Assembly (NCBI GenBank): GCA_003558985.1
Contig: PWNJ01000120.1
Location: forward strand, 1 to 56,330
DNA length: 56,330 nucleotides
DNA from: a candidate division CSSED10-310 bacterium
Lineage (GTDB): Bacteria; CSSED10-310
Reading direction: 5' to 3'
The translations under genes were made by a program, and so were the position numbers. Below the pieces are notes generated by a model, which was not told the origin of the DNA, did no database searches, and saw nothing but the letters and a program-made list of their open reading frames with translations. Each line of letters begins with the position of its first letter. Position 1 is the stretch's first letter. Below are positions 2,270-46,925 of the stretch, one piece after another.

Positions 2270-3346
2270 CTATCGGCTGCGAAGCAGCCCAGCGGCCGAA
2301 GGCCGCGCCGCGTTGACCAGTATTAAAATCAGAAGAATTCCTGCCACTGTTTCCCACAGCGCCAGTTGATCATCCGCACAAATCTGATGAACATACTCAA
2401 ACTGAGTGCTGATCAGGTAATCGGCCGCCAATCCGGATAACAACGCGAAAACCGCCACTACAATCAAATAGATTATAGCGGTTCTTCGTCCCATGACTTT
2501 CCATATTGTTGAAATAGTCGCCGCATTGGTCGCCGGTCCGGTAATCAGAAATACAAGCGCAGCGCCCGGACTGATTCCTTTCATAATCAACGCTGCCGCA
2601 ACCGGAATAGACGATGTTGCACACACATATATCGGTATCCCGATGATCATCATGAACAGCATTTGCATCAAAACACCTCCGGGGATTTTCTGCAGTAACT
2701 CCGGAGGTACATACGCTCCGATAAGTCCGGCCAGAATAACCCCAATCGTCAAAGCCCGTCCAATATCCCGGGGTAGCGAATAGAAGCTGTATGTCATGAT
2801 TTTGCTAAACGGTTTTTCCACTGTGTTTTGATCGCTGTCCACCAGAGTGGCAGACGCGTCGGTTTTATCAATACATGCGTCGTCTGACATATCAGGATTC
2901 TGTATTGTACCGGATGAGTCGGTTTCAGAGGATTCCGATTTGTCCCTGTCAAAAATACTGACAATAATACCGCCGGCAATCCCGGTTATCATGGCGGCTA
3001 TAGGGCGAAACAACGCAAAAAAACCGCCCATCAGACTGTAGGTCACAGCAATACTGTCCACTCCTGTTTGAGGTGTCGCCAATAGAAATGCCGTTGTCGC
3101 ACCTTTGCCGGCCCCGCGCAAACGAAGTGATGCAGCGACAGGGATGACACCACAGGAACACAGCGGCAGCGGAACACCCAGAAATGTTGTCTTGACAATA
3201 GACGATATCCGGTTTTTACCTAAATGTTTGCGCACAAATGATGGTTTGATAAATACATACAAAATGCCAGCAACAACAAATCCGAACAACAAAAATGGCG
3301 CCATCTGTCCCCACACAAGCCAAATATGCTTCAACAGATCCGTCAT
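2270..3346 (-). CDS. DUF318/ArsP-family permease (SO_0444-like metal efflux transporter)
   Basis: Two hydrophobic halves with PLPLCSCGVIP, ATPQTGVDSI and PIYVCAT..P, GPATN motifs, joined by an acidic linker. Confidence 0.85.
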   Translation of the reverse strand: MTDLLKHIWLVWGQMAPFLLFGFVVAGILYVFIKPSFVRKHLGKNRISSIVKTTFLGVPLPLCSCGVIPVAASLRLRGAGKGATTAFLLATPQTGVDSIAVTYSLMGGFFALFRPIAAMITGIAGGIIVSIFDRDKSESSETDSSGTIQNPDMSDDACIDKTDASATLVDSDQNTVEKPFSKIMTYSFYSLPRDIGRALTIGVILAGLIGAYVPPELLQKIPGGVLMQMLFMMIIGIPIYVCATSSIPVAAALIMKGISPGAALVFLITGPATNAATISTIWKVMGRRTAIIYLIVVAVFALLSGLAADYLISTQFEYVHQICADDQLALWETVAGILLILILVNAARPSAAGLLRSR

Positions 3347-3497
3347 TTTAAAATGTTGCCTTTCTTCATGTCTGCCAAAACTCCATTAATTAGGTGTCTG
3401 ATTCAGGTTTCAGGTTACAAAGTTTACGTGTATATGTTTCGTTATTCGGCGAATATGATATAGTAGCCATCAGACGAAACCTGACGGAGTGCAAGGT

Positions 3498-6400
3498 ATG
3501 ACAGATTCTGAAAAAATTCAATCCGATGCGCGGTTAGCTAACGAACCCGGCGGTCGTATTCCTGATCCGGAACTGCCCGAAGAACAACAGCATCTGCTGC
3601 AGATAACCGAAAACGCACATGGAGTCAGAAAACGGCTGAAGAATTTTTTCTGGGAATTACATCATCCCTTCTCAAATGCTGATCAGACCGTCAAACTGCT
3701 TAGAGATTCCGTGTTGAATGATCTGTGGTTTTTTATAAATCACAAAGACAGTGTAAAAGCCATGCAGACCATTATGGAGGTTTTTAACAGGATACTGGAC
3801 AGAAAACTGACGGATTTGCTCAAAGAACGCCTGATCACAACGCTCGTTGATTTGATGGACAGTTTATACGAACAGGATTCGCGTGATTTTGACAAGGTGC
3901 TGGATCAGGGACTTGAAACCCTGGAAAGGCATTGTCAAAGTTCTTACAGGTTGTTCTGTCGATCATCACGCTTGTTAAAAGCTGTCAAGACAACATTTGC
4001 ATCAGACCCTCGCTGGCGTGACCGTTGGTTTTTTATGCTGAAAAAAGCGCTCCAAACAAATGTACGTTTTTGGAAAAACTCCTCGGAATATGATTCATGG
4101 ATGAATGAATGGGTCATTGTTACTCATTCCGATTTATCGTTTTTATCTGATCATTTGGGAGATGCATATTTTACAGGTATTGAATCCGGTATCGATAAAG
4201 CTGTAACCTGGAACGATCTTGTTGAAATACAGGACTGGATTGATATTTCTGATCACTTTCGCAAATCGATGCAATTGATACGCAATCCGCTGGACAAAAC
4301 CTATTTTGTGTTATATCTGCTGAAACATTCCGGAATGGTGTATGAAAGAGACACGTTGATTCGTGATTTGAACAGGGTGATTCAAACAATTCATGACGAG
4401 ATTCGTGATGAAGAAGTTACCGGGTTTATTGACCGGTTGTTTGAGTTTTTTGAGCGACTGAAAACGGATTATATGGGAACAGTTCTGGATTGCATTCTGA
4501 CACTTGGAAAAGCCGTGTTTGCTCGTGAAAGCAGGTTAAGCGCAGAACATTTTATCGACAAGGTCATTCATTTCGGATTTGTGCCGCCCAAACATATAAA
4601 TGAGGCCAGAAGCTGGCAATCAGAGACCGATCCAAATCATATCAAGTGTTTGCGCGTATGGCTCGAGATAATCGAATGTGAGCCGGCGCGATGTTTGAAA
4701 CTGATTATAGCCCTTATTGTCAACATTCGAATAAAAAAACTGTTCATCGCCGATACAGATTTGTTTCAACGTGATGTTACAAACCTGTTGAATGCACCAA
4801 TTGAACCGGTATATCAGGCTGTCAGGGAGCTTGCCAGATTGTTTCCGGTTTATTTTAACGAGATTGGAGCTGAGGGTGTTCTTCGGGTGGTGACCACACG
4901 TATTGATGAAGAATCCGGACGGCAGGACCGGTTGATACATTATTTACGCAAGCAGATACATACGGAAAGTAATAATACCCATATACTGCTGGTCAAGGAT
5001 ATTGCCCGGTTCTGGTATAATGGTGATCCTGCCGTACTGAAGCGGCAGGTGCCTGCTGATGTGGCTTGTGAGCTGGCGGCATCCGGTAAATGGTTTGAAC
5101 CGGTACATCAGGCTATTCGGACTGTATGCAAACGGTTTGGTGTAACCCCTGAAAAAAGTCTGATGCTTGATCCGGATAAAGTGCATAAATATCTTGAATC
5201 TGTTGAGAAAAAAGATCCTCAAAACCGTGATATTTTCCGGCTGGTCAAACTGATCGAATTGCACCAGTTGCTTGAAGCAAAATATTCGTTGAATGATTAT
5301 CGTATTCTGGAACTGCTCAAACACGATCCGGCCATGCAGCATAAAGCTCAAAGATTGGAAAATATGCTGGCTAAAAATAATGTTGATGCCGCCTTGCACC
5401 TGGTGTTCGGTTTGCTTCAGCAGCTACGTAAAACGATTTTGAACCCGGAACAGATGCAGCCAACCGAATCCATTTATCAGAAAAGGCATATCGCTGTCGG
5501 TATTCCGTCTATGTATGGCCGGTATGCCGAACCAAAATTTGAAGCTCTTGGCCTTTCATTCCGACTGGAAGCGCTGGCATCCAATCTGATGGCACAGGTC
5601 ATTCAAAACATAAATCTGAAATACATTAGCGCATGGACTCTAAGACGAATTGTACAGGTTTTATCCTATTTCCAGACCGGGTTTCGAATGACCGGTATTG
5701 TCAATGAAGGTTTTAACACGAATATCCGAATGCTGAACGACAGTCTGGAAACAACTTCTTTCAGTATTTCGCAATATCTGAATCTGTTTCAGTTTCTTAT
5801 GAGAAGTGTGCGTCAGATTATTCAGTCGTACTGTATTCGACCCTTTGAACAGGTGCTTCGGGATGTTCTTATCAAACAATACCAGGATATATATGGTGTT
5901 GAACCCGGTCCTCGTCATGTCAGAGAACTGCATGGACAGGCAGAAATATTTTACCGGGATGTGCTTGGTGAGACGTTTTTGATATCGCAACTGGACACTC
6001 TGATAAGCCGAATTTTGGACACCCTTAACCGAATGTCATCAACAATGGAACCGGAAATTATCGATGGTGTTATGACATTCGATCCGGATTTAATGACAAG
6101 TTCAATACATGAAGCAGATCATGCTCTGGACAGCCAGATTTTTCTGGGAGCAAAAGGATATTTTCTTAAACGTCTTCATACGTTTCATTTCCCCGTTCCA
6201 AACGGATTTGTGTTAACAACGGAGATGTACCGAAGACGTGTTGCTATATCCAGATATCCGGAAATTTTTCACGAAGTGTTTGGACTCATTAAACGCCGTA
6301 TCGCTGAACTGGAATCACGAACCGGAAAACTTTTTGGAGACCCTTTGAATCCTCTGCTGCTGTCCGTCAGATCAGGAGCAGCCATATCTTTGCCAGGCGC

Positions 6401-7637
6401 CATGACAACCTTTCTGAATGTTGGACTTAATGACAACATAGTCGAAAAACTCAGTTGTCAGCCAAATTACGGATGGACATCATGGGATTGTTATCGCAGG
6501 TTTTTACAAACATGGGGTATGGCCTACGGTATCAATCGAGACAAGTTTGACCAGTTAATCATTGAATTCAAAAAACGCTACAATGTTGAAGAAAAAATGA
6601 TGTTTACCAATGAACAGATGCGAACCATAGCGCTTGCATACAAAGATGTGTTAACCGAACATGGTATCAAGTTTGAGGAAGACCCGTTTCGACAGATCAT
6701 GCAGGCAATTATGGTTGTAATGGATTCCTGGAACACTGATCGCGCCAGAATATATCAGAAATATCTTCAGATTTCGGCTGACTGGGGAACAGCAGTTATT
6801 GTACAGCAAATGGTTCTGGGAAACATCAATGTGGATTCAGGTACTGGTGTTGTGTTCACACATGATCCGTTAATACGGGAGCCGGGCATACATCTGTATG
6901 GTGATTTTACCTTATGCAGCCAGGGTGAAGATGTTGTCGCAGGACTGGTGCATACTTTGCCCATTTCCGAACACCAAAGAAAACGGTCTCCGCAAAAAAA
7001 GGGTACTTCCGATGAAATCGAATTATCGCTTGAAAAAGATTTTCCTGAAATATACCGCGAACTGCTGAAACGGGCCAGACAACTTGTATACACTTATGGT
7101 TTTGGACATCAGGAAATTGAGTTTACGTTTGAAACCGCCGCAAAAGATGATTTGTATATTTTGCAGACCCGTGATCATTCATGGGGCAGAGACGATAAAA
7201 TACCTGTATTTCGTGATGCTGACATATTCGATAACATATTAGGGACTGGTATTGGTATCAGTAAAGGGGCTATGAATGGAGTTGTTGTCTTTGATCAGGA
7301 AGACCTGAAACAGTACAAAAACATGGATTCAGGCACAAAACGGATATTGGTCAGACCCGATACTGTTCCGGATGATATCGGTATGATCTTTGACTGTGAT
7401 GGGCTGTTGACTGCTCGCGGCGGCGCCGCATCACATGCGGCTGTCACAGCCGTTCGCCTGGGAAAAACATGTGTGGTCAACTGTAAAATGCTGACTGTTC
7501 TTGAAAAAGAAAAACGCTGTTTAATCAATGGAACCGAATTACGATCAGGTGACAGGATTGCTATTGACGGGCGATCAGGTCATATTTATAAAGGTCATTA
7601 TTCAATTGAAATGGCAGCTCCGCTTGAGTTGCCATGA
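3498..7637 (+). CDS. Large PPDK-like dikinase: ~870-aa unknown N-terminal region, ATP-grasp domain and phospho-His swivel domain; no pyruvate-binding barrel
   Basis: LGAKG, PVPNGFVLTT, LLSVRSGA, YRRFLQ, QQMVLGN..SGTGVVFT, QGEDVVAG, EIEFT, LQTR, then LTARGGAASHAAV; the protein ends after the swivel domain. Confidence 0.85.
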   Translation: MTDSEKIQSDARLANEPGGRIPDPELPEEQQHLLQITENAHGVRKRLKNFFWELHHPFSNADQTVKLLRDSVLNDLWFFINHKDSVKAMQTIMEVFNRILDRKLTDLLKERLITTLVDLMDSLYEQDSRDFDKVLDQGLETLERHCQSSYRLFCRSSRLLKAVKTTFASDPRWRDRWFFMLKKALQTNVRFWKNSSEYDSWMNEWVIVTHSDLSFLSDHLGDAYFTGIESGIDKAVTWNDLVEIQDWIDISDHFRKSMQLIRNPLDKTYFVLYLLKHSGMVYERDTLIRDLNRVIQTIHDEIRDEEVTGFIDRLFEFFERLKTDYMGTVLDCILTLGKAVFARESRLSAEHFIDKVIHFGFVPPKHINEARSWQSETDPNHIKCLRVWLEIIECEPARCLKLIIALIVNIRIKKLFIADTDLFQRDVTNLLNAPIEPVYQAVRELARLFPVYFNEIGAEGVLRVVTTRIDEESGRQDRLIHYLRKQIHTESNNTHILLVKDIARFWYNGDPAVLKRQVPADVACELAASGKWFEPVHQAIRTVCKRFGVTPEKSLMLDPDKVHKYLESVEKKDPQNRDIFRLVKLIELHQLLEAKYSLNDYRILELLKHDPAMQHKAQRLENMLAKNNVDAALHLVFGLLQQLRKTILNPEQMQPTESIYQKRHIAVGIPSMYGRYAEPKFEALGLSFRLEALASNLMAQVIQNINLKYISAWTLRRIVQVLSYFQTGFRMTGIVNEGFNTNIRMLNDSLETTSFSISQYLNLFQFLMRSVRQIIQSYCIRPFEQVLRDVLIKQYQDIYGVEPGPRHVRELHGQAEIFYRDVLGETFLISQLDTLISRILDTLNRMSSTMEPEIIDGVMTFDPDLMTSSIHEADHALDSQIFLGAKGYFLKRLHTFHFPVPNGFVLTTEMYRRRVAISRYPEIFHEVFGLIKRRIAELESRTGKLFGDPLNPLLLSVRSGAAISLPGAMTTFLNVGLNDNIVEKLSCQPNYGWTSWDCYRRFLQTWGMAYGINRDKFDQLIIEFKKRYNVEEKMMFTNEQMRTIALAYKDVLTEHGIKFEEDPFRQIMQAIMVVMDSWNTDRARIYQKYLQISADWGTAVIVQQMVLGNINVDSGTGVVFTHDPLIREPGIHLYGDFTLCSQGEDVVAGLVHTLPISEHQRKRSPQKKGTSDEIELSLEKDFPEIYRELLKRARQLVYTYGFGHQEIEFTFETAAKDDLYILQTRDHSWGRDDKIPVFRDADIFDNILGTGIGISKGAMNGVVVFDQEDLKQYKNMDSGTKRILVRPDTVPDDIGMIFDCDGLLTARGGAASHAAVTAVRLGKTCVVNCKMLTVLEKEKRCLINGTELRSGDRIAIDGRSGHIYKGHYSIEMAAPLELP

Positions 7638-7648
7638 AGGAGGATTTT

Positions 7649-8893
7649 ATGAAATCAGGCAGCAGGAATTATTTAGGTATTAACGGTGCAGGCCGAATAG
7701 GCAAATTAACATTATGGCACCATATTCTTCGGGGTTATTTTCCCGGTATCGTTATTAATTTTGGGCGCGAAGTCGGAAAAAGTCTGGAAGATGCCGTGCA
7801 TTCACTTTGTTCCGATTCAACCTACGGACCTGTTGAAAAATTTCTTTATGGCATCAATGCCGAAAGAAAAATTTCGATTGTTGACAAAGATCAGGGGTTG
7901 ATAGACATGTTTGGAACCCCGGTAAAAATTTTGCGTGAAGCAAGAAACCCGGCTGAAATTGGCTGGCATCGTGACAATATTCAGCTTGTCATTGATACAA
8001 CCGGTAAATTTTCTGATCCAACAACGACTGCTGATAACTCGTCCGGAAGTCTTCGCGGACATCTTGAAGCCGGCGCAAAAGTCGTTATAAACAGAGCACC
8101 ATTTAAAATAAAGGATAAAACAAAATCCGAACCGGACGATACGGCAATGCTGATATACGGTATCAATCACACAGAATACAGACCGGGTATTCACAGAGTT
8201 CTGTCGGCAGCATCCTGCACTACCACCGGTCTGGCTCATATGATCAAACCACTTCTGGATACCGAAGAAACATCCAAAATACTGACAGCATCCATGTCCA
8301 CCATCCATGCCGCTACCAACACCCAAAGTGTACTGGACAGTGTTGCCAAAACAAAAGCGACCGATTTGAGAAAAAACCGGTCTATAATGAACAACATTAT
8401 TCTGTCGACAACAGGAGCTGCAAAAGCGCTTGAAAAAGTTTTGCCGGAGATTAAACGCGTCGGTTTCATGGCTGACTCGGTTCGAATACCAACAAACACC
8501 GTATCTCTGATCAATCTGAATGTAACATTTCATACAGCGCTGGATGACAATTTTGAACCCGTCATCAATCGGCCGTTTCTGAATGATATTTACCGAAATG
8601 CCGCCAATGGGGCTCATAAAGGTCAAATGGTCTTTTCAGAAACACAAAATGTCAGCGCGGACCTGATCGGCGTGCCAGCCGCCGTCATTATCGAAGGCAA
8701 TGATACACATACACGCACTGGATTTGTTGAAATTGGATGCGAAATGCTGGAATCACAGGGAGTATGTTGCGAAAAACCTGTTCGATTGCCGGTCACACAT
8801 GCAAAAATATTCGGCTGGTACGACAATGAATACGGCAGCTATACTTGCGCTTTGGGCGATCTGACCGAATATGTTGACCAAAAAATGGCATGA
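7649..8893 (+). CDS. gap: Divergent type I glyceraldehyde-3-phosphate dehydrogenase family protein
   Basis: GINGAGRIG, ASCTT (catalytic Cys), TIHA (His), TTGAAKA, RIPT, WYDNE; RBS AAGGAGG supports ATG 7649. Confidence 0.85.
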   Translation: MKSGSRNYLGINGAGRIGKLTLWHHILRGYFPGIVINFGREVGKSLEDAVHSLCSDSTYGPVEKFLYGINAERKISIVDKDQGLIDMFGTPVKILREARNPAEIGWHRDNIQLVIDTTGKFSDPTTTADNSSGSLRGHLEAGAKVVINRAPFKIKDKTKSEPDDTAMLIYGINHTEYRPGIHRVLSAASCTTTGLAHMIKPLLDTEETSKILTASMSTIHAATNTQSVLDSVAKTKATDLRKNRSIMNNIILSTTGAAKALEKVLPEIKRVGFMADSVRIPTNTVSLINLNVTFHTALDDNFEPVINRPFLNDIYRNAANGAHKGQMVFSETQNVSADLIGVPAAVIIEGNDTHTRTGFVEIGCEMLESQGVCCEKPVRLPVTHAKIFGWYDNEYGSYTCALGDLTEYVDQKMA

Positions 8894-9315
8894 TCAGCAT
8901 GAAAACTGCAGGAGTTATCAGTCTTATATTTTTGGTGTTCTCCGGGTTAACTGTAACTCAAGCCCAGGAACACCATGATATCTCGACCGCTTTGACTCAG
9001 GCGTTTCGCTCAGGTAATGCAAATGTCCTCAGCCGGTTTTTACCGGCTGAAGGACAGGGTCGGGTTCAAATGGCGATTGTCGGCGTGGGTATCTCCAGCG
9101 GAAATTATTCAGCAAAACAAACAATCGCCCTGCTTCAACAGGCTTTTAGACAATATGAAACAATATCATTCAGGGCTAACACTCGTAGCAGCGCGGTCAG
9201 AGGCGAATGGACTGTGAAACATAAATCTTCAGAGGAACAGAAAACAATTATCATCTATGTGTCCTTTCAGACGAAAAATGGCTCACATATAATTAATTCC
9301 ATACGAGGCAACTAG
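8890..9315 (+). CDS. Secreted protein, DUF4783/NTF2-like
   Basis: Signal peptide (..TQA-Q); AFRSGNA..LSRF and YS..Q....L..F patterns; ATGA overlap with gap. Confidence 0.55.
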   Translation: MISMKTAGVISLIFLVFSGLTVTQAQEHHDISTALTQAFRSGNANVLSRFLPAEGQGRVQMAIVGVGISSGNYSAKQTIALLQQAFRQYETISFRANTRSSAVRGEWTVKHKSSEEQKTIIIYVSFQTKNGSHIINSIRGN

Positions 9316-9337
9316 CTCTGACCGGATAAAACAGCAA

Positions 9338-10186
9338 ATGAAGGTTAAGCCAATCGATTATCTGGAATTATGGCGGACAATCACTGAACGTCACAACTCG
9401 TTCAAACAGTTGTCATCCCCTGAAGATATCTGGAAACATAAGGCAGAAAACTTTGATACCAACGTCAAAAAACGCTGGAAAACTCCTGATTCCAGCCGTG
9501 AATGGTTGCGAAAACTGCTTGAAAACAATCCGGGGTCATCGTTTTTGGACATTGGAGCTGGCACTGGCGCCTGGACCTGTTTCGCCGCACCTTTATGCGA
9601 ATATGTCACAGCCCTTGAACCTTCACAGTCCATGATCAATATCTTATCAGATAACATACAAAAGCATGATCCTGGAAATGTTCATATTATCAAAAAGGCC
9701 TGGCCTGCCAAACTTCAGGACATACATGATATCACGCTCAGCGCACACTCCCTGTATGGGTGTCCCAATTTTGCATCCTGCATCAAAGAAATGAATGATA
9801 TCACCAGTCATACCTGTGTTCTCTTGCTACGCGCTCCATCAATTCATAGTCTGACGGCTGAAATATCGCAAAAAATCTGGGGACATCCCCATGATAGCCC
9901 CAATTTTCAGATCGCATACAATGCATTGCTGCAAATGGGTATTTTCGCTGATGTCATTATTGAAGACAACGCTTTATGGAATCCCTGGGAATATGACAGC
10001 GTTGAGTCTGCTTTTTACGACATCAAAAGAAGAATGGGTGTTCCAGACAAATCCCGTTTTGATACCTGGTTAATGCAGATTCTTCATGCAAAGCTCATTA
10101 AATCCAATGAACGTTATCTGTGGCCTGATACTATTCGCAGCGCGCTGGTGCACTGGCGAACTGATTCCGGGCTGACTGATGTCTGA
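9338..10186 (+). CDS. Class I SAM-dependent methyltransferase
   Basis: Motif I FLDIGAGTG; LEPSQSM. Confidence 0.85.
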   Translation: MKVKPIDYLELWRTITERHNSFKQLSSPEDIWKHKAENFDTNVKKRWKTPDSSREWLRKLLENNPGSSFLDIGAGTGAWTCFAAPLCEYVTALEPSQSMINILSDNIQKHDPGNVHIIKKAWPAKLQDIHDITLSAHSLYGCPNFASCIKEMNDITSHTCVLLLRAPSIHSLTAEISQKIWGHPHDSPNFQIAYNALLQMGIFADVIIEDNALWNPWEYDSVESAFYDIKRRMGVPDKSRFDTWLMQILHAKLIKSNERYLWPDTIRSALVHWRTDSGLTDV

Positions 10187-20490: not shown

Positions 20491-23400
20491 CTAAACGGGT
20501 ATGGCCACCAATACAAAGTTTTTCATTGAATAGATCAGTTTTCCGTCAACGATCAGAAACCCGTCAGCGTAAGCGGTTTTTTTAGTATCGTCTACTTTGG
20601 TAATAACCGCCTGAACAGTGACCTGTCTGTTTGAAGGCAGAACCTGTCCACGATAAATCCATTGATGCCGGGCATTGGGATATTCAAATCGATACTGTTT
20701 ATCACCCCATCTTTCCAGTGCGTATACCTGCAACAGTTGCAGCATGGCTTCTATGCCAAGTGAACCAGGCCAGACGGGGTCCTGATAAAAATGAGCCGAA
20801 AAAAACCACTCCTTCGGATCTATTGATTTAGTACCTTCTACCAGACCAAAACCATGGGGGCCGTCATCAATTTTCAGAACAGTAAGTGTGTCAATCATGC
20901 GCAGCGGTGATTCCGGCAGTGACGAATGGAGTGGATAGGAAACAGGCTTTTTTAACAAGTATTTATCTGTATTTACGGGTTTCTGATCTCGTATGCCAAC
21001 CTGTTCGGCAAGCGCGGCCCGGGTAAAGAATCCAAAATAGGTGTCTCCGGTATAGATATCACCTTGTGAGTCATACACAGCAAAATCAAAATGCTGTATA
21101 ATCATGCCTCCTGAATGCGATACTTTCGTTGATTTTACCTCAACAGCCAAAACTGAAGCGGTATCAATATCCGGCATTCTGTGAATAACACCATTTCCTC
21201 CAAGATTTCTGTAAGACAAATCTGTTTGGCTGTATAACGCTGATCCCATATAAGCCGAATACCATCCGCAGGGCTGTAGAGCGATTTCCAGCAATACAGC
21301 AAAAGGCATTCCGGATCGGCCGTTTGCAGCCAGATACCATTCATCTGCCCGCATATCATATTCTGTTATAATCCGGCCTCCGGCTTTCATTATCCATGGT
21401 TCGGCTTCCAGCAAAACAACACGATCAAGAAACTGATAAGGCGGGCCGGGCAATCGGGCTATAATGCGTTCACTGTCAAATATACTGTATTTGTCACCGT
21501 ATGCTTCAGATGGGTTTCCGTTAGAAAATGCCAGAATACTCGATTTGTTATACAATGCCGGACGTGTTCCGGGAATCGGTCGGGTTATGCCAGACACCGG
21601 CCGAGATTTCGCCGACCAGATTTCATTCAGTCGTTCACGGGTCAACCCTGTCAACTGAACCGACATATTCCGAATTTCAACCACCGGTTTGTTATCCGCA
21701 TACATCATAGCATCCGCAACAGCATAAGGTTCCGAATCCAATCCTATTTCCTTGATACACACCTCATAAGCCGCCACACGGGTATTTGAAGTCACTTGCC
21801 CACGGCATTTCAATTGACAGGGTACTCCCGGTTTCGGGTTCCAGCAAAATTCATCCTCCTCACCAACCCAGCCCATACCCATAAGCAATACTTTCAATGC
21901 ATGAAAACAACATTCGTACATCAGCGTTCCGGGCATAACCATGTCGTCAACAAAATGACACGTCAAAAACCATGCATCCGGTTGGATGTCCGCTTCAGCT
22001 CTGATTTTACCCAGTTTCCACTGTCCCCCGACAGGCTCAAACAAAACTATCCGATCGATCAAATGCATTTTACCACCAGGTAATGCTGCCGGATTCTTTA
22101 ACGGTAATCCTTCAAAAGATTCACCAAAACAATCTGTAAGACAGCCCCTGCGCAAAGCATTCACCTGTCTTTCATCAAAAGACTGATCTGTCAGTCTGAC
22201 GTATATATGCTCCGATTCGTTCTGATTTATGTTTTCACATGGTTTTTGAAACGCCGGCTGAATGATGCCCTGCCCTGCTGCCAATTCCTTGTCGGAGAAA
22301 AACCCTGCGGTCCCATTGCGCATACTTAACAAAAGCTCACCATCTATAGATGCGTCATATTCAAAATGAAACAGCCAGATATTTTCTTGCCGGAAAAAAC
22401 GTGTGATTCTGATGGAATACCGAATCGTTTCGCCCGGTTCCGGCAAAGCGCCAGCCATCGTTATTTCAGCGTCAAGAAGCCGGTATTTCTGAACACCTTT
22501 GGTTTCAAAATCAATACCCAGGAATCCCGATAAAAACAGGTCGGCCTGACCTGCTTCAACAGTAATACATACAGGACATTTGCCCTGATCAAGATACCAT
22601 GCGTCCGGAAGAACATCATGTTCGGTAATAATACTTCCGGGTTTCATTGATTTGGGAATGGCATCCACAGATATGATCCGATCAACAAGCATCAGGGGTT
22701 CATCCGGAAGCCGCACCCGGGTTGGATATGTATCTGCTTCCGAAAACTCGGGTCCCAGAACATTGGCAATACTTCCAACAGCAAACTCAAGACATTGTTC
22801 CCGGTCCATAAACACATCGTCCTGTTTTGAAACAGTCTGTTGACAGGGCGCCGTCATTTTATCCGTATCACTATCGCACGGTATATGCGGTAACAGTTCT
22901 GTCTGAAATGACACCAAACGACGCATGGATTCAGTCCAGTTTTGGCTGAGTTCCAGATACTGCTCATGAGCCTTGCGAACAGCAGTTCCAGTCCGATGCA
23001 ATGCGCTGGATAAAAGCGCTTCATTGGATGACATATCTTTTTGGGCTTCTGATTGTGGTGGCCCAGGCATTTTTCTGCTGTCAATATCCTTCACCGCCAA
23101 TCGATAATTGTATGCGCTTTCAGCATTCGGAATGCACGACACATCCAAAGGTGAATTAGGGCCGGGACGCCTCCATGCAGATTCCTTTTCGGAAACCAAT
23201 AATTCCAGGTTGACATTATGTCCTGCGGAGGCAAGCCGTGACAGTAACCCGAATAGTGATTCCGAAGGTTTTTTGTCTCGATTGTCCAGTAAGTCAACCG
23301 AATAGTCCTGACCTTTCAAAATTTGGTGAATCATGTTTGTGCAACTGTTTCCGGGTCCGATTTCCACAAAATGACGCACACCGTCCTGCCAGGCTGTTTT

Positions 23401-26400
23401 TACAGTTTTGACAAAATCAATCCCTTCTGTGGCATGCGCCAGAATGGCATTGGCACATTGATCCGAATTAACCGGGTAAGACTTTCCCCAAGCACCCGAA
23501 TAAACACGTATATCATACGCCTTGTCAACAGGTTGAAAATGCAGTTGGCGATACTCATCAGCAACACCGGACACTTCCGGAATATGTGCAACCGTCACAC
23601 CGGTGACGTCTACGCCCGACAATCCGACATCTTTTAAAAAAGCCTGAAGTTGCGGCCCATGACCTCCAATTACACATTGTTCCGGAGTGTTAATGATAAG
23701 CAGATACACAAGCGGATACTTGCTTAACTGTTTTCGAAGCGTTTCAGCATCACTGTTTACAATAGATATTTTCCATTCAGGATTCGTCCCTTCAGGTAAA
23801 TTCCATGCCTGCACAAGAACATTACACGGACCGGCCAGTTCATTGACAAACAACGTGGAGTTTTGCAGTTGCCGAAGCACTCTGTCCCTGTCCGGCCATA
23901 TTTTCCAACCAACCAATGCCGTTGATTCGCCCAGACTGTATCCAATAACAGCATTCGGTCGAACACCGGATCGACGTATCAGTTCAGTTACAAAATATCC
24001 ATACATGACATGACCAACGATCAAACCGTGCGGATCATGATCCATTTTTTTTCTGTCCGGCTGATTCCAGTAAACCTCCGGTTGAAACATATCTTTCAAT
24101 CGGCAGTTTTCCTTGTCCAACTCATCCAGAATGTGCCTGAAAACAAAACCGGGTTCTCTACCCAAAAATGGCCGATGATTTCCGGAACCCGAATAGACGA
24201 AAGCGGTTTCCGGAACTTTGTCGTTGTTTGCCGAATAATCAAACTGTCTGGCTATATCACTCAGTCGTTCTGTCAGCTCCGGTAATGCCAGCGGTTTGTG
24301 TGATGACGCGTCATGCTCACTCAGACAAACCGTTGCTGAAGCGCCTGAAAACGACTGCGAACAGACGTTTGCAAGCCGGAGACCATCTTCACGGTTTCGG
24401 AGCCAATACTGGGGTCCGGCCGCCTTAAAAGCATGGTCTGCCGGCATAATGCGATGATGTATGGCAATAACCGCCTGAGCCAGTTCATTCAGTCCGCTGA
24501 CTACACCGGTATCACCCGGTAAACAGGATGTTTTACGATTGAACACCACCGATGTTGACAAATCAGGATTGTTATCGCCAGTGTTGTTTCCACTCAGACC
24601 GGACATCATTTCTATGTCATCAATAACTGCCAGAACAGTATCATTCGCCTTTTCGGCATCCTTCAGACGTTTCAGAACAAAGGCTGTTGAACTGTCCATC
24701 ACTGTGTTGGAACCGGTACGCATCTCTGTTCCAATGACATTTCTCCAATCACTGTTCAGATCAACCGCTCCCACAAGGGCCTGACAAATTTCTCCATGCT
24801 GAAGCATTTGAACCGCTGCTGAAAGCGCTGCAATCCCGGACAGCTCATCAGCGGAAACGGTAAACCCGGCTCCACCCACCTTGAACGCACGAGAGACTCT
24901 GCCTGCTACCATACCACCCAATGCGCCCATTGTCCGATTGGCTGTCAGCGCGGGTGACCATGTGTTTTTTATTGTCTCAACACAAATATTTTCCGCGCCT
25001 TGTCCGTTTTGAAGCCATTCAGGCACGATTTTGTCAAGGTGCCATCGAATACAAAAGTTCGTTGTGTTCAGATCAAGTCCGACTCCTATAAACACACCTG
25101 ATTCGACCGCGTCAGACTCGTTCCAGTTTCCCTGATCAATCGCATCCGCGGCTACTTTCAGCATCAGTAACTGCTGCGGAAGCATTTCTTGAAGTTCTGC
25201 TGGCGGGATTCGAAATCGCACCGGAGATACCCCGGTTTTTCCAAGCGGATACTCAGTAAAATTTCCTGGATTGATGACATAATCACAAAACCAATCCGAT
25301 TGATCCAGTCCATTCCATGTGTGTTTACGGTTCGGGTTTTCCAAATCCTTTGACGCATCTTCAATACCTGTAGATATTTTCTGAATACCGTCCATATCCG
25401 TCCACGAGCCTGCTGCGGATGCCATGCTGACAATTGCAATTTTTTCCGGCGCCTTATCCCTTGATTTCCGATTCCTGCTTGTTTGATCGACTTTTTCTTC
25501 AGGAACACGTGAAGGTATATTTGATGAATAGATTTTCTTGCTGTGTAAAAGTTCAGAATTCCATTCTTCAAGCAGCAGATGCGCATTAATACCGCCAAAA
25601 CCAAAAGCGCTGACAGCAGCTCGTCTGGTTTGGTGCTCATTGTCGGCTATCCATGTTTCCGGTTGTTTCAGAATTCTGAAAGGACTGTCATCCAGAGATA
25701 TTTTTGATGATGGTGTGTCATAATTAGCTGATGGAGGCAGCATTCCATGCCTGATCGCCAGTAGCGCCTTTATCAGACCAGCGCCACCGGCGGCTGTTAA
25801 AAGATGGCCTATATTCGATTTAACAGAACCAATAGCACATTTTGTGCCGTTTTCCCGGTTTGAGTTATGCCAAATGTTTAACAATGAAGAGAACTCAACT
25901 GCGTCACCAACAGGTGTTCCGGTGCCATGACATTCCACCAGTTCAACGTCCGACGGCATCCATCCCGCCTGTTTATAGGCGCGTTTCATCGCTCTGATCT
26001 GACCTTCTGAATCAGGAGCAAATACACTTCCGCCAATATCATTTGAAATGCCAATCGCCCGAATTACTCCATAAATTTTGTCCTGATCCCTTACAGCATC
26101 AGAAAGCCGTTTCAATGCAACCATGGCGGCGCCTTCACCGACAACAAGGCCATCGGCTCTGGAATCAAAGGGGGAGCATATTCCCGATGGAGACAACGCC
26201 TGCAGTTGCGAAAATCCCATTTGAGTGTACATACAGTCGGGACGGCTGACCCCTCCAGTTAAAACCATATCCAGTCGGCCGGAAATCAGTTCCATAGAAG
26301 CCAGTTTCAGTGCATATAAGGATGATGCGCAGGCTGCATCCAGAGTATACACGATTCCACTGATTCCAAGTGATTGAGCCAGCATATTTGCCGGCAATGC

Positions 26401-26943
26401 TGCAGGATACAGATTTCGGGTATCATAAAGCGGAGCAGCAGTTTTCGGTTGAATGCCGGTAACAAGATGGTTGATACCCGGTAAAACCAGGTCGGCTGAT
26501 ATTTCAGAAGCTTTGCTTGTTGGCAGAATAATGTTACCCAGAATAATGCCTGTCCTGTCGCTATCGGGATAGCTACCGCAAATATCCTGGTATAAAAGAT
26601 GACCGGTGTGCAGTGTCAGATGAAATACCGGATCAAGCTGACTCAAATCAAATTGGTTGCGAAGCGCATCTGGAATATCAGGCAATGAGTCCAGCAGACA
26701 AGCGTGCACAGACCGTGTTTTATCCGGTTTGAGAGTATTAGAATGAACTGATTGAGGTGCGACCGGCCAGCGAGTTTCCGGTATTATTGAGGATGCATGA
26801 TCTCTTTTCAGAATCATCTGCCATAAATCATCAGGTGTCGGCGCTTTCGGCAAAGTTGCGGCCATGCCGACGATTGCTATTCCGGATGCGTCATGAAGTG
26901 CGTCATAACCACCGGAAATTTTTGTCCGTTTATTACCATTCAT
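20491..26943 (-). CDS. pfaC: PUFA-synthase subunit, fused PfaBC/Pfa3 type: KS-CLF-AT-DH'-DH-DH'-DH
   Basis: KS DAACASS/ECHGTGT/KSNIGH; Cys-less CLF (SADELSG); AT GYSLGES; FabA-like DH motifs CHFVDDMVMPG..E and AHFYQDPVWPG..E. Confidence 0.9.
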   Translation of the reverse strand: MNGNKRTKISGGYDALHDASGIAIVGMAATLPKAPTPDDLWQMILKRDHASSIIPETRWPVAPQSVHSNTLKPDKTRSVHACLLDSLPDIPDALRNQFDLSQLDPVFHLTLHTGHLLYQDICGSYPDSDRTGIILGNIILPTSKASEISADLVLPGINHLVTGIQPKTAAPLYDTRNLYPAALPANMLAQSLGISGIVYTLDAACASSLYALKLASMELISGRLDMVLTGGVSRPDCMYTQMGFSQLQALSPSGICSPFDSRADGLVVGEGAAMVALKRLSDAVRDQDKIYGVIRAIGISNDIGGSVFAPDSEGQIRAMKRAYKQAGWMPSDVELVECHGTGTPVGDAVEFSSLLNIWHNSNRENGTKCAIGSVKSNIGHLLTAAGGAGLIKALLAIRHGMLPPSANYDTPSSKISLDDSPFRILKQPETWIADNEHQTRRAAVSAFGFGGINAHLLLEEWNSELLHSKKIYSSNIPSRVPEEKVDQTSRNRKSRDKAPEKIAIVSMASAAGSWTDMDGIQKISTGIEDASKDLENPNRKHTWNGLDQSDWFCDYVINPGNFTEYPLGKTGVSPVRFRIPPAELQEMLPQQLLMLKVAADAIDQGNWNESDAVESGVFIGVGLDLNTTNFCIRWHLDKIVPEWLQNGQGAENICVETIKNTWSPALTANRTMGALGGMVAGRVSRAFKVGGAGFTVSADELSGIAALSAAVQMLQHGEICQALVGAVDLNSDWRNVIGTEMRTGSNTVMDSSTAFVLKRLKDAEKANDTVLAVIDDIEMMSGLSGNNTGDNNPDLSTSVVFNRKTSCLPGDTGVVSGLNELAQAVIAIHHRIMPADHAFKAAGPQYWLRNREDGLRLANVCSQSFSGASATVCLSEHDASSHKPLALPELTERLSDIARQFDYSANNDKVPETAFVYSGSGNHRPFLGREPGFVFRHILDELDKENCRLKDMFQPEVYWNQPDRKKMDHDPHGLIVGHVMYGYFVTELIRRSGVRPNAVIGYSLGESTALVGWKIWPDRDRVLRQLQNSTLFVNELAGPCNVLVQAWNLPEGTNPEWKISIVNSDAETLRKQLSKYPLVYLLIINTPEQCVIGGHGPQLQAFLKDVGLSGVDVTGVTVAHIPEVSGVADEYRQLHFQPVDKAYDIRVYSGAWGKSYPVNSDQCANAILAHATEGIDFVKTVKTAWQDGVRHFVEIGPGNSCTNMIHQILKGQDYSVDLLDNRDKKPSESLFGLLSRLASAGHNVNLELLVSEKESAWRRPGPNSPLDVSCIPNAESAYNYRLAVKDIDSRKMPGPPQSEAQKDMSSNEALLSSALHRTGTAVRKAHEQYLELSQNWTESMRRLVSFQTELLPHIPCDSDTDKMTAPCQQTVSKQDDVFMDREQCLEFAVGSIANVLGPEFSEADTYPTRVRLPDEPLMLVDRIISVDAIPKSMKPGSIITEHDVLPDAWYLDQGKCPVCITVEAGQADLFLSGFLGIDFETKGVQKYRLLDAEITMAGALPEPGETIRYSIRITRFFRQENIWLFHFEYDASIDGELLLSMRNGTAGFFSDKELAAGQGIIQPAFQKPCENINQNESEHIYVRLTDQSFDERQVNALRRGCLTDCFGESFEGLPLKNPAALPGGKMHLIDRIVLFEPVGGQWKLGKIRAEADIQPDAWFLTCHFVDDMVMPGTLMYECCFHALKVLLMGMGWVGEEDEFCWNPKPGVPCQLKCRGQVTSNTRVAAYEVCIKEIGLDSEPYAVADAMMYADNKPVVEIRNMSVQLTGLTRERLNEIWSAKSRPVSGITRPIPGTRPALYNKSSILAFSNGNPSEAYGDKYSIFDSERIIARLPGPPYQFLDRVVLLEAEPWIMKAGGRIITEYDMRADEWYLAANGRSGMPFAVLLEIALQPCGWYSAYMGSALYSQTDLSYRNLGGNGVIHRMPDIDTASVLAVEVKSTKVSHSGGMIIQHFDFAVYDSQGDIYTGDTYFGFFTRAALAEQVGIRDQKPVNTDKYLLKKPVSYPLHSSLPESPLRMIDTLTVLKIDDGPHGFGLVEGTKSIDPKEWFFSAHFYQDPVWPGSLGIEAMLQLLQVYALERWGDKQYRFEYPNARHQWIYRGQVLPSNRQVTVQAVITKVDDTKKTAYADGFLIVDGKLIYSMKNFVLVAIPV

Positions 26944-26965
26944 TACAGGGTCACCTTTTCATTGT

Positions 26966-29900
26966 TCATTCTTTGCGGTGTGCCCTGAACGCTTCCTTGA
27001 GGCCTTTATCTGCAATACATTCCAACCCTTCGATACAAGCAATAATCTTACCTGATGGGTCGCTGAAATATACATCTGAAATAATTTGAGCCGATTGACG
27101 GTTTTTAATTCTTATGTCAACATTAGCTCTTGAAGGCATTTTTTTGACAAATTGAGTATAGCGTTTCAGTCCGCACGGAAGTGATGGCATATCCAAATTC
27201 AGCGTTGTCCACAATATGACAAGCTGGAATGCCGCATCTATAATCCCGGGATCAGTGATCCATTGCTTCCTTAACGGCCTTTTTAACCATTTCGCAGGTT
27301 CTGGTGATCCGTCAGCGACACCATGTATCCCTTTTTGACTCATTCCTTCAACTGAGCGCACCCCCTGAAGCATTTTACCGTGAAACAACACATCCTGATA
27401 AAGCTGATTCCGTTGTACCGGACAGGGCTCCATCGTTTCAAACGGAAGGGGCGGTTTGACTGGTTCCAGGAACTGTTTTGAGAGCATTACATCAGTTGAA
27501 ACATGAACATATTTTTTGCCATCTGACTGAATACCCCGTAACTCGACCGGTACATAGATGGTATTACTGTCTTGTTTGAATACTCCCGCCTTGGCTTCCA
27601 GTTCAAGCGGAGTTTTTTCAGAAAGGATTATCCCTTTAAGAAGTCTGAAGTCGTCAAAAGCCAGAAAATTCAGATCCGAATGTATTTCAAGCGCACAGGA
27701 AGCACACCATTCCATCAACAGTGCCATCGGTACAACAGGTCGTTTGTTTATCAGATGATGTTTTAACACCGGAACTGAGTCTGGCGACAAAACCAGGTTA
27801 AAAACTTCACGCCATTTTATATCCGTAGGCCCTGCTTCCGGACCGGTTTTATCTACCAGGTTGTTTTCGGTCAACTCCGGCCTGAGGTCCTGTGGCAGAT
27901 CGGTATCGGGTTCTGTAGTTCCCATAACCACAATTTCTGCTGGAGCAGGTTTTTCAGGTGTGTGTTCCAGGCAGAGTTCTCTGATCAGATGACGCGCGCC
28001 AGACCGTATATCTATTACCTCTACATTTTCTTTTCTGAACAGTTCTTTCAATTCAGGTGTCACCATTCCACCGTCCCATGGACCCCAGTTGATAGACATC
28101 GTGCGGCACATTGGATACATTTTTGCCACTTTTGCTGCAAATTTGTTAAGCACTTCGTTTGCCATAGCATAATCAACCTGACCTGTACGTCCGAAACGAG
28201 CGGTACTTGAAGAAAACAAAATGATCGTTTTCATTGTTTCAAGTGTCAGATTTTCTGCAAGGCAACGCAAACTTTCTACTTTCGTATTTACAACCTTGCA
28301 AAAATCATCCTCAGATTTGTTGTCAATCAAGTTATCGGCGATAATTCCTGCGCCATGAATTAGCCCGGCAAGTGTAAATCCCGATTGATCCATTCTTTTT
28401 GTAAGGGTGCTTACCTGAACAGAATCAGTCAGATCAACCTGTTCGTATTGAACTTGCACTCCTATGGTTTTCAAGGTTTTAACCGTATTGTAGATCTCAC
28501 GGTTATTCATATATCGCAAATATTCTGTCTGCAGTTCTTTGGGCGTCAGTTTTTTATTCGCCTGTTCCATAATTGCCTTTTTGATTTCAGCATCATCCGA
28601 TATTCCTGCCAACCATTCCGGTTCCGGTTCAGGAGGTTGGCTTCTTCCGGCGAGGACAAAATTTGTCCTGAATCGCCTGGCAATTTCAATCACGCAGGCC
28701 GCGGTCACCCCGCGAGCGCCGCCGGTTGCCAAAAGCCAGTCACCCTCGACAAGCGGTTCCCGGGTCAGTCTTTTCGGATCAATGGGTTCATCTTGCATGA
28801 CAACTTGAACCTTGCCCCGGGATGAAAAACCTGTTTCAAGGGGGCCTTCACGGAACATCTCTTCTATCAAATCATTAAGATCGGGTTCATATTTCCTGTC
28901 AGCATCCACATCAATTATTCTGCAGTAAACTTCCGGCCATTCCTGTCGAATTGTTTTTACAAGTCCGGACAGAGCGGCAGTCATGGGTCTGTAATCAGTC
29001 AATGTGTCATGTAAACCCAACGCTCCATCCAATCGTAGCAGTGATATGATTGCGGGGGTTGATTTGTCAGAACGGCTGGGGTTTCTGACTTTTTTACTAA
29101 CCAGTTTTACAAGTTTAAACAACTTTTGCAGATACTCCATATCACATGAGTCCCGTGGTCCGACCAGAATCAAACCGGCAACATCATCAGGCAATTCTAC
29201 AAATTCAAGATAATCCAGCGAAATAATTCGAACAGGAATATACATGTTTTCCAATGCTTCCAATAGCAATTCACTCAATCCGCAATCGTCACGCGTGATC
29301 CAGATTTCAGCATGTTCAGGTAAAACAATTTTATTGCGGTTCGTTTCATTCAAAGGTTGAAGGGTCAGGATTTTTCTGTCCATTCGATACAGTTTGTCGG
29401 GCACAGATTCGGACACTTTCGGTTCGGATTCAGTGTTGACAACAGCAGGGGACGGCGCAGGTTCAACCGGAGGTTCCAACTGGTCCGCTTTCATAGTCTG
29501 CTTGCCTAAAGTACCTTTTAAAGCTGTCACAAGGTTTTCAATATTCCCGATGGAGCGCAATTCAGCTAACTGTTCCGGTTTAATGCCGGGAAGACCGGGA
29601 ATTGTCTCCTGTAACGCAGACATGATCTCAACACGCTTGATGGAATCAATGCCCAGATCAGCATCCAATTCCATGTCCGGTTCAAGTAAATCGGAAGGAT
29701 AACCCGTTTTGTCCGCAATAATACCGCGCACGGTTTCAACGATAGAATCACTTGTGACATCCTGTTTGATCTGAATGGGTTGAGTGTCAAACGGACTTGC
29801 TTTACCTGATGACGGTTTTGCGGATTCAACTTCAGGGGATTCCGTCGATGTTTTCTGGAGTATTGATTTTTCAGAAATTTCGGGCGCTGACATATCGGAC

Positions 29901-35340: not shown

Positions 35341-35485
35341 AAACAATCCTTTCGCCACTGTTGTGACAATGCTCTTCATAACAGATTTATACCAATATAT
35401 CAAGTCTGGATGATGCACAAAGGGTTAAGATTCAACAACTTATGACGCATCGCGTCACATTTGATTGCATGATGTGTCAGGGACT

Positions 35486-46837: not shown

Positions 46838-46925
46838 AGTCTATCCTCATATCGTTTCACAACCGAACACCCGATGTCTGTCTGACTGACGAATGCTCAG
46901 ATCGTTATTTTTACACATCGTTATG

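Follow-up and report, generated by a model that had tools for sequence, protein, structure and literature searches.

The stretch of DNA analysed here (the window) is a 56,330 nt contig (PWNJ01000120.1, assembly GCA_003558985.1, positions 1 to 56,330 of the forward strand) from a candidate division CSSED10-310 bacterium, whose metagenome-assembled genome (MAG) comprises 2.79 Mb in 259 contigs at 60% completeness, in a phylum represented by 14 species genomes. Two co-directional open reading frames (ORFs) on the + strand occupy positions 3498-8893, one running from GTG 3489 or ATG 3498 to 7637, the other from 7634 or 7649 to 8893. The first encodes a very large protein with a PPDK-like C-terminal half (which we refer to as the giant dikinase, or the giant), the second a long, divergent GAPDH paralogue (gapL). 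An earlier examination of the letters by themselves (the sequence-only reading) had described the pair as an orphan dikinase tightly linked to a divergent GAPDH and as a candidate phosphotransfer module. The features of the pair are:

3498..7637, + strand: giant dikinase gene, 1,379 aa from ATG 3498, with an in-frame GTG at 3489
3498..6107, + strand: N-terminal all-alpha domain (N-domain), residues 1-870, all helix in AlphaFold2, no family or solved-fold match
4623..5633, + strand: most conserved N-domain core, residues 376-712, with 23 of the 26 invariant N-domain residues
4743..4775, + strand: conserved acidic motif, residues 416-426, including invariant Asp419
4842..4886, + strand: glycine-rich G-A-x-G ... 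R motif, residues 449-463 (Pro450, Gly457, Ala458, Gly460 and Arg463 invariant)
4926..4982, + strand: basic/His motif, residues 477-495 (Asp477, Arg484, Lys485, Gln486 and His488 invariant)
5472..5552, + strand: invariant beta-hairpin loop, residues 659-685 (Lys662, His664, Ser671, Gly674, Tyr676, Glu678 and Lys680)
6129..7181, + strand: PPDK-type ATP-grasp nucleotide/phosphate-binding domain, aligning with PPDK residues 16-319
7341..7580, + strand: phospho-histidine swivel (PEP-utilizers mobile) domain, catalytic His1313 codon at 7434-7436
7637..7643, + strand: Shine-Dalgarno sequence AAGGAGG, 5 nt before ATG 7649
7649..8893, + strand: gapL, long divergent type-I GAPDH paralogue, 414 aa (419 aa with the start at 7634)

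The database copy of the giant (P0005) is also 1,379 aa long, the length obtained from ATG 3498. Pfam recognised PPDK_N (PF01326, E 2.8e-25) and the PEP-utilizers mobile domain (PF00391, E 2.7e-16), both confined to the last ~450 residues, and did not find PEP-utilizers_C (PF02896), the PEP/pyruvate TIM barrel. Among solved structures, the C-terminal 509 aa align with residues 16-319 and 378-512 of Clostridium symbiosum PPDK (E 1e-72): the ATP-grasp motifs G-x-K-G, S-V-R-S-G, Q-G-E-D-V-V-A-G and E-x-E ... Q-T-R are retained, the histidine of the G-G-x-x-S-H-A-A motif, aligned to the catalytic His motif of PPDK, is His1313, and the last residues of the protein fall at PPDK position ~512, at the expected start of the linker to the PPDK barrel. 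The Pfam scan and this alignment agree with the sequence-only reading, which had seen the ATP-grasp motifs and the phospho-His swivel kept and the C-terminal barrel missing. The NCBIfam model of PPDK (TIGR01828) gave 369.4 bits, below its cut-off of 843.45 and over profile positions 13-335 of 865 only, and PEP synthase models reached about 68 bits or less.

Residues 1-870 have no match in Pfam or NCBIfam, and a profile of 16 full-length relatives left them unmatched among the sequences of solved structures (best non-PPDK E 0.37). An AlphaFold2 model built with 56 sequences (predicted local distance difference test, pLDDT, 85.5; predicted template-modelling score, pTM, 0.76) is helical throughout save for one hairpin at 656-677, the tip of which (661-673) is the lowest-confidence stretch of the domain besides the two termini. 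The Foldseek search of the whole domain, which the sequence-only reading had proposed as a check, returned solenoid-like noise only, namely generic HEAT/ARM/TPR-like alpha-solenoids at template-modelling (TM) scores of 0.10-0.21. The best hit of VIA-align wide (48,161 chains) was Z 10.6 over 95 residues of helical bundle, a value within the range that the tool calls uninformative for helical proteins and at which a missed relative is possible. The core at 376-712 modelled by itself (pLDDT 83, pTM 0.73) was likewise unmatched in the fold searches (Foldseek best E 0.49; VIA best Z 8.1, a helical hairpin only). The best feature score in the ESM Atlas, 0.87, stayed under the lead threshold of 0.9; it came from an unnamed 959-aa cluster, probably of the giant's own family. 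As modelled, the N-terminus is no cryptic PEP/pyruvate barrel, the fold that would have spoken against the sequence-only reading, where it stands as ~870 aa of unrecognised, helix-rich sequence, and it has no detectable structural relative within reach of these searches. With no barrel, an all-alpha N-terminus and a TIGR01828 score below cut-off, the giant is not an ordinary PPDK and the 'PPDK' label, as had been suspected, is wrong.

In a 16-member alignment with overall identity down to 23%, 26 residues of the N-domain are invariant, most of them charged or polar: Asp419, Leu431, Pro450, Gly457, Ala458, Gly460, Arg463, Asp470, Asp477, Arg484, Lys485, Gln486, His488, Lys595, Tyr596, Lys662, His664, Ala666, Ser671, Gly674, Tyr676, Glu678, Lys680, Gly733, Arg820 and Asp833. 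As this set persists down to 23% identity, the domain would appear to hold a ligand or catalytic site, beyond the needs of a mere scaffold. The hairpin loop at 659-685, its sole strand element, is probably mobile, given the low model confidence at 661-673, and the glycine-rich loop with its arginine, the basic/His cluster and the mobile hairpin would together fit an anionic, probably phosphorylated, ligand and a swinging phospho-His domain.

The stop codon of the giant (TGA, 7635-7637) is followed by ATG 7649 after a gap of exactly the 11 bp noted in the sequence-only reading, and an alternative ATG at 7634 overlaps the stop; the start of gapL is most likely at 7649. The protein matches Gp_dh_N and Gp_dh_C (Pfam) and scores 284.2 bits on the type-I GAPDH model TIGR01534, under the cut-off of 367.2. 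Its catalytic Cys lies in an S-C-T-T-T motif (8213-8227) and its His in a T-I-H-A-A-T motif (8300-8317), and comparison with solved and canonical GAPDHs shows that the Rossmann G-x-G-x-x-G, the nucleophile Cys, the catalytic His and the phosphate-site Thr/Arg are retained and are invariant in 34 gapL. In what we take to be the standard GAPDH numbering, Thr179, Arg231 and the T-G-A-A-K-A phosphate loop are kept and Arg195 is replaced by Lys. Because Cys, His, Thr179, Arg231 and this loop are kept, the retained residues argue for a putative substrate like glyceraldehyde-3-phosphate (G3P) or 1,3-bisphosphoglycerate (1,3-BPG). The protein is ~80 residues longer than canonical GAPDH, owing to six lineage-specific insertions in which conservation is lower than in the remainder. 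A quick maximum-likelihood tree, covering 43 of the 78 GAPDHs adjacent to giants (all 24 short ones and 19 of the 54 gapL), placed gapL in a single clade on a branch of 2.42 changes per site (SH-like approximate likelihood ratio test, SH-aLRT, 100), and 15 upstream, same-strand genes (gapS), found in Bacteroidota, Ignavibacteriota and Cloacimonadota only, in a second clade (support 100), while the divergently oriented neighbours grouped with ordinary GAPDH. The divergence of the GAPDH remarked upon earlier is thus seen both in its sub-threshold TIGR01534 score and in its separate, long-branched clade. PADLOC anti-phage models assigned 0 families to the giant and 0 to gapL, and a defence-system reading was rejected for want of such a match.

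The giant is an orphan only in lacking a known function, the family itself being large. A word-indexed search with residues 1-870 found 652 proteins at E <= 1e-3, and among the 120 matches listed nearly all are 1,340-1,402 aa with both Pfam domains present, under source labels such as 'PEP/pyruvate-binding domain-containing protein', 'pyruvate phosphate dikinase', 'ppdk2' and 'hypothetical'. A scan of species genomes (one genome for each species) gave at least 597 stretches, at least 564 of them confirmed, and an exhaustive profile search with the N-domain alone gave 687 cluster representatives, 259 of them at E <= 1e-30. We scanned 25 divergent representatives, in which each full-length protein has PPDK_N and the mobile domain and no other catalytic partner of the N-domain was seen. 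Judged by record titles, carriers span more than ten phyla and include Geobacteraceae and other Thermodesulfobacteriota, Bacteroidales/Lentimicrobiaceae/Marinilabiliales, Clostridia, Atribacterota, Cloacimonadota, Calditrichales, Ignavibacteria, Dehalococcoidia, Myxococcota, Spirochaetales and Nitrospirota. Two variants stand out: P0173 and P0179 (loci L088-L098; Myxococcota and a Spirochaetales MAG) carry a hemerythrin HHE domain fused at the N-terminus, and a divergent 'type-2' branch in Nitrospirota/Thermodesulfovibrionales (L099-L129; G054-G058) has giants of about 1,460 aa that are 23% identical yet retain the invariant N-domain residues. A scan with the single protein P0263 gave no loci, and one with alignment A7 did. 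The giant (0.428) and gapL (0.441) have a slightly lower G+C content than the rest of the window (0.458); this, taken together with a patchy occurrence among phyla, would be in line with the pair having spread laterally. DNA of the source organism was present in 11 metagenome DNA runs from salt-lake, soda-lake, lake-water and sediment samples; no RNA run was listed for it.

To count neighbours we used four sets of loci, with ORFs called mechanically; set 1 holds the best 80 of more than 564 matches, chosen and not random. A gapL was counted where a gene had at least 45% identity to the window gapL, lay on the same strand and started within 450 bp of the end of the giant, and only loci with 1.4 kb or more of sequence beyond the giant entered the denominators. 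On this rule gapL lies directly downstream in 52/68 loci of set 1 (L001-L080; a partial gapL is present in 8 of the 12 loci with shorter sequence), in 10/10 of set 2, the hemerythrin-fused variant (L088-L098), in 38/46 of set 3, mostly Thermodesulfobacteriota (L130-L178), and in 0/23 of set 4, the type-2 Nitrospirota branch (L099-L129). In set 3 it occurs ~1.3 kb further on in 3 more loci and on the opposite strand in 2. ORF clustering of the 80 relatives and the window found GAPDH in 71 of 81 loci, the sole family besides the giant common to more than 9; the other set-1 neighbours are lineage-specific housekeeping genes (LepA, BirA, deoxynucleoside kinase, RlmN, MatE). The 16 set-1 loci without an adjacent gapL have a short GAPDH directly upstream on the same strand (3 loci), a housekeeping-like gap 108-254 bp upstream in divergent orientation (6), a GAPDH slightly further off (2) or none (5), such that another GAPDH gene lies within 260 bp upstream in 9 of the 16. 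The order gapS-giant-gapL recurs in 11 set-1 loci, and the giant has three kinds of GAPDH neighbour: gapL, gapS and housekeeping-like gap. Among them gapL is an almost obligate, dedicated partner of the giant, and the gap linkage, whose loss in homologues would have told against the sequence-only reading, is conserved.

The same association was seen at the level of genomes, where 23 of the 24 sampled carriers of a type-1 giant have gapL, against 0 of the 23 sampled genomes without one; the sampled genomes are related, hence non-independent, and we give this as a pattern with no statistic. In the phylum of the window (14 genomes) 7 have a type-1 giant, and gapL is present in 7/7 of these and in 0/7 of the others: in the carriers a gapL-level match (62-100% identity) adjoins the giant on its contig, whilst the non-carriers have canonical GAPDH only, at identities of no more than 41%. 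A second order (28 genomes) has 14 genomes with a type-1 giant, with gapL in 13/14 against 0/14 without, the lone exception being a giant frame with two in-frame TAG stops. Of five Nitrospirota genomes with the type-2 branch, 3 also have a type-1 giant, and gapL is present in these 3/3, adjoining the type-1 giant, against 0/2 of the rest. The dependence between giant and gapL is one-sided, some carriers of the giant being without gapL. In gapL-less Bacteroidales carriers (G009-G013, e.g. G009:C28:65587-66063) we also observed a third form of GAPDH (open frames of 492-526 aa), which may be the long, N-terminally extended type of NCBIfam NF006139.

In set 3 the pair is linked to the gap-pgk-tpiA operon. 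Twelve of these loci have a canonical-like gap in the same orientation, 3-149 bp upstream of the giant, and pgk lies downstream in 13/49, followed by tpiA in 12 of those 13. In 10 loci pgk directly follows gapL, in L141 and L161 it comes after an intervening canonical-like gap, and in L169, where there is no gapL match, it directly follows the giant; neither pgk nor tpiA was within reach in the other 122 loci. Pfam confirmed PGK, TIM and SecG in L132. Loci with both flanks, all from Thermodesulfobacteriota, show the order gap-GIANT-gapL-pgk-tpiA-secG; the cultured Thermosulfurimonas dismutans S95 (L135) has, as far as its available sequence extends, gap-GIANT-gapL-pgk, and Desulforhabdus sp. 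TSK (L161) the variant GIANT-gapL-gap-pgk-tpiA. Given the order gap-GIANT-gapL-pgk, the pair falls precisely between the producer and the consumer of 1,3-BPG, and this placement is the most specific contextual clue at hand.

We tentatively read the giant and gapL as one metabolic module at the G3P/1,3-BPG/3-phosphoglycerate (3-PG) node, in which the giant would be a His-dependent dikinase acting on 3-PG/1,3-BPG, a proposal that we regard as somewhat short of probable. By homology, the ATP-grasp domain would load His1313 from ATP, with the gamma-phosphate passing to Pi (ATP + Pi + E-His <-> AMP + PPi + E-His~P, PPi being pyrophosphate). The His domain would then swing to the N-domain, where the invariant Asp/Arg/Lys/His/Ser/Tyr cluster and the mobile hairpin would bind an anionic acceptor, proposed to be 3-PG (E-His~P + 3-PG <-> E-His + 1,3-BPG), and gapL, judging by its conserved catalytic residues, would interconvert 1,3-BPG and G3P with NAD(P)(H). 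The pair would thus run parallel to PGK and GAPDH as PPDK does to pyruvate kinase, in one direction as a strongly driven gluconeogenic step at the cost of ATP to AMP, in reverse yielding ATP from AMP and PPi; it may push gluconeogenesis in autotrophs, acetate oxidisers and syntrophs, or bring fermenters a PPi-saving gain. We chose 3-PG/1,3-BPG because no other GAPDH substrate requires a phosphoryl donor for its interconversion, because the ATP-grasp domain is of the PPDK (Pi/PPi) type, because textbook standard free energies put the reaction 1,3-BPG + AMP + PPi <-> 3-PG + ATP + Pi close to equilibrium, and because transfer from phospho-His to a carboxylate has a precedent in succinyl-CoA synthetase, an ATP-grasp enzyme in which it gives an acyl phosphate. 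In its most specific form, which we put forward with greater reserve and consider less than likely, the giant would be a '3-phosphoglycerate, phosphate dikinase' (3-PG + ATP + Pi <-> 1,3-BPG + AMP + PPi) channelling 1,3-BPG to or from its own GAPDH. A membrane H+-pyrophosphatase is present in 14/14 genomes of the phylum, giant or not, which makes its co-occurrence uninformative for the giant; its presence in all 14 suggests that a PPi economy exists in the phylum.

Several observations weigh against the 3-PG/1,3-BPG proposal, for which the evidence is computational throughout. PGK is present in the own genome of the window and in 5/5 other carriers, and the canonical gap coexists (own genome: contig 59, 223 bits); with PGK and canonical gap standing beside the pair there is no missing step for it to fill. 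Ten genomes picked because their locus was without gapL carry it elsewhere in 3 cases and lack it in 7, and these 7 have instead the ~500-aa GAPDH form (5 genomes), two ordinary copies (1) or a single GAPDH (1). The type-2 branch has no GAPDH link in 29/31 loci, with canonical gap just downstream in 2 and no neighbour common to more than 5 of the 31. The insertion between gap and pgk is found in one lineage group only and may be a single inherited event. The N-domain is unlike any known 3-PG site or solved fold in the searches run; as modelled, its residues 1 to ~395 resemble an alpha-solenoid, a fold that usually binds proteins, and the hemerythrin fusion is more typical of sensors and regulators. 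For the residue equivalent to Asp32 in gapL, the HMMER and MAFFT alignments disagree, with an invariant G-R-E following; the idea that loss of Asp32 makes gapL NADP-specific was dropped on account of this conflict and of the downstream G-R-E. Within the library covered, our literature search turned up no publication dealing with the giant family, a 'phosphoglycerate dikinase' or a PPi-dependent PGK. Separately, the giant as a replacement of PGK, canonical GAPDH or PPDK was rejected, as all three coexist with it.

That the giant is an ordinary PPDK, with its barrel supplied as a separate subunit or hidden in the N-terminus, is extremely improbable. The C-terminal half is strongly PPDK-like, and no PEP-utilizers_C was found in the own genome, where at 60% completeness such an absence is weak evidence and probably an assembly gap, since a PPDK of canonical size is present in each of the phylum's 13 other genomes. 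The stand-alone PEP-utilizers_C gene that the sequence-only reading had suggested looking for was, however, found neither there nor in 5 other carriers and the 13 other phylum genomes; in these two groups every barrel lies in a frame of 558-1062 aa, sizes that match Enzyme I, PEP synthase or PPDK, the exception being a G017 gene divided between two contig ends. No such frame is near a giant, no barrel gene is among the conserved neighbours, a PPDK of canonical size exists alongside, and the N-domain is modelled as all-alpha.

Two further explanations keep the pairing and change its meaning. The giant might be a protein-directed dikinase or scaffold, whose alpha-solenoid N-domain holds a GAPDH tetramer (gapL or another) while the phospho-His phosphorylates or controls it. 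We consider this unlikely, and equally doubtful its corollary of a GAPDH isoenzyme switch set by energy charge or, in hemerythrin-fused forms, by O2, NO or iron. It would account for residues 22-395 giving helical-repeat matches only, for the hemerythrin fused in P0173 and P0179, for neighbours drawn from three GAPDH clades (gapL, gapS, housekeeping-like gap), for the six gapL insertions as possible docking sites and for gapL never occurring without the giant in the sampled genomes. Yet the invariant residues lie in a buried-looking Asp/Arg/Lys/His core that is kept to 23% identity, including in the GAPDH-less branch, no phospho-acceptor site was identified on gapL, and to our knowledge there are few precedents for a PPDK-type His domain phosphorylating another protein. 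Alternatively, the couple could be another acid and aldehyde, the giant making the acyl phosphate of a different carboxylate (e.g. 4-phosphoerythronate or a sugar acid) and gapL reducing it. We rate this as quite unlikely, and so too the likeness it would imply to a carboxylate-reductase or an Asd/ArgC-type pair. A very long-branched, separate gapL clade (2.42), a score under the type-I GAPDH cut-off (284 vs 367 bits) and a canonical gap that always coexists with gapL suggest a changed role. Against such a change, gapL retains the GAPDH residues for the substrate phosphate and the attacking phosphate, canonical-like GAPDHs are also found as partners of the giant, which in the gap-GIANT-gapL-pgk-tpiA operons of Thermodesulfobacteriota lies between gap and pgk-tpiA, and no further pathway genes are conserved nearby.

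Returning to the proposed 3-PG/1,3-BPG dikinase, its relation to known enzymes can be drawn at several levels. PPDK (EC 2.7.9.1; TIGR01828; PDB 1kbl/1dik) shares the ATP-grasp domain and swivel His (E 1e-72 over residues 16-512), but the giant has no TIM barrel, has 870 extra N-terminal residues and has a conserved partner in GAPDH rather than in pyruvate metabolism. In keeping the ATP-grasp domain and swivel His it follows the same acceptor-swap logic as rifampin phosphotransferase (RPH), glucan-water dikinase and PigC/RedH. Its ATP-grasp domain weakly matches the RPH and PigC models and the RPH structures 5fbs/5hv1, with the RPH model NF041857 giving 30.5 bits (cut-off 999) over the ATP-grasp segment only and no homology beyond; unlike RPH-type enzymes, with the RPH domain order as we take it to be, the giant carries its acceptor domain, three times larger, at the N-terminus and has an ATP-grasp of the PPDK (Pi/PPi) type. 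PGK and GAPDH share the proposed overall chemistry (3-PG <-> 1,3-BPG <-> G3P) and, in 13 set-3 loci, the gene cluster, but PGK has no sequence or fold relation to the giant and transfers directly between ATP and ADP, where the giant is proposed to use ATP/AMP and Pi/PPi via a phospho-enzyme. Succinyl-CoA synthetase and ATP-citrate lyase combine ATP-grasp, a mobile phospho-His and reversible acyl-phosphate formation and use ATP/ADP; they are a mechanistic precedent for the giant, to which they are unrelated in sequence, and differ from the proposed ATP/AMP and PPi. As for gapL, the ArsJ-associated GAPDH (NF033735), Epd/E4P dehydrogenase and Bacillus subtilis GapB are likewise dedicated paralogues of type-I fold with one partner gene, but gapL scores 144.3 bits on the ArsJ type (cut-off 450) and 110 on Epd (cut-off 531), forms its own clade and has a giant dikinase for a partner.

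Elsewhere in the own genome (G000; C108:6992-13814 and C143:1-3228; L083-L085) we observed three more PPDK_N proteins without a mobile-His or barrel domain, one of 1,058 aa with a C-terminal Pol-beta-type nucleotidyltransferase, one of 582 aa adjoining glutamate dehydrogenase and one of 746 aa. The remaining features of the window are:

2270-3346, - strand: ArsP_1-type permease, divergent from the giant
8890-10186, + strand: DUF4783 gene (141 aa, signal-peptide-like start), overlapping the gapL stop by 4 bp, then a 282-aa S-adenosylmethionine (SAM) methyltransferase
20491-35418, - strand: cluster of three proteins like a polyunsaturated fatty acid (PUFA) synthase/polyketide synthase
35486-38548, - strand: 1,020-aa protein with TPR and CHAT (caspase-like protease) domains
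46001-48230, - strand: lysine-2,3-aminomutase (434 aa) adjoining a GNAT acetyltransferase (278 aa), with a MarR gene upstream

The permease is suggestive given the ArsJ-linked GAPDH family, and was not in the gene clusters common to at least 3 of the 80 set-1 loci. The methyltransferase has a weak PADLOC match to mad2 (E 2.4e-15), and neither it nor the DUF4783 gene has a homologue in the 80 related loci. The polyketide cluster consists of a 2,235-aa protein (KS, AT, three PP-binding stretches, KR and PS-DH), a 2,150-aa protein (two KS-type stretches and FabA-like dehydratase domains) and a 582-aa NMO-type enoyl reductase with a FabD helical insert, which presumably resemble pfaA, pfaC and pfaD. 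The aminomutase and acetyltransferase we take to be ablA/ablB for the osmolyte N-epsilon-acetyl-beta-lysine, an assignment that would suit DNA recovered from salt-lake and soda-lake samples.

Lower glycolysis is considered completely mapped. Here, a 150-kDa enzyme of constant architecture occurs in hundreds of anaerobic species belonging to more than ten phyla; its N-domain is large and confidently modelled, is without a detectable structural relative and bears a catalytic-looking invariant site. The automatic 'PPDK' labels on this family mislead pathway reconstruction in MAGs. If the 3-PG/1,3-BPG proposal is true, the giant would add a third PPi-linked step of glycolysis/gluconeogenesis beside PPi-dependent phosphofructokinase (PPi-PFK) and PPDK, widespread in energy-limited anaerobes, and run against PGK it would form an ATP-driven, PPi-generating cycle, a candidate PPi source for PPi-dependent glycolysis. 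PMC8863071 treats that source as an unsolved problem in C. thermocellum, an organism in which the giant is not shown. Such a PPi-linked bypass of PGK would alter how models of fermenters, syntrophs, sulfate reducers and sulfur disproportionators account for ATP and PPi, and would offer metabolic engineering a reversible step of high driving force, whilst if the giant is instead a regulator it would represent a new mode of GAPDH control. The module points to an undescribed step in lower glycolysis or gluconeogenesis.

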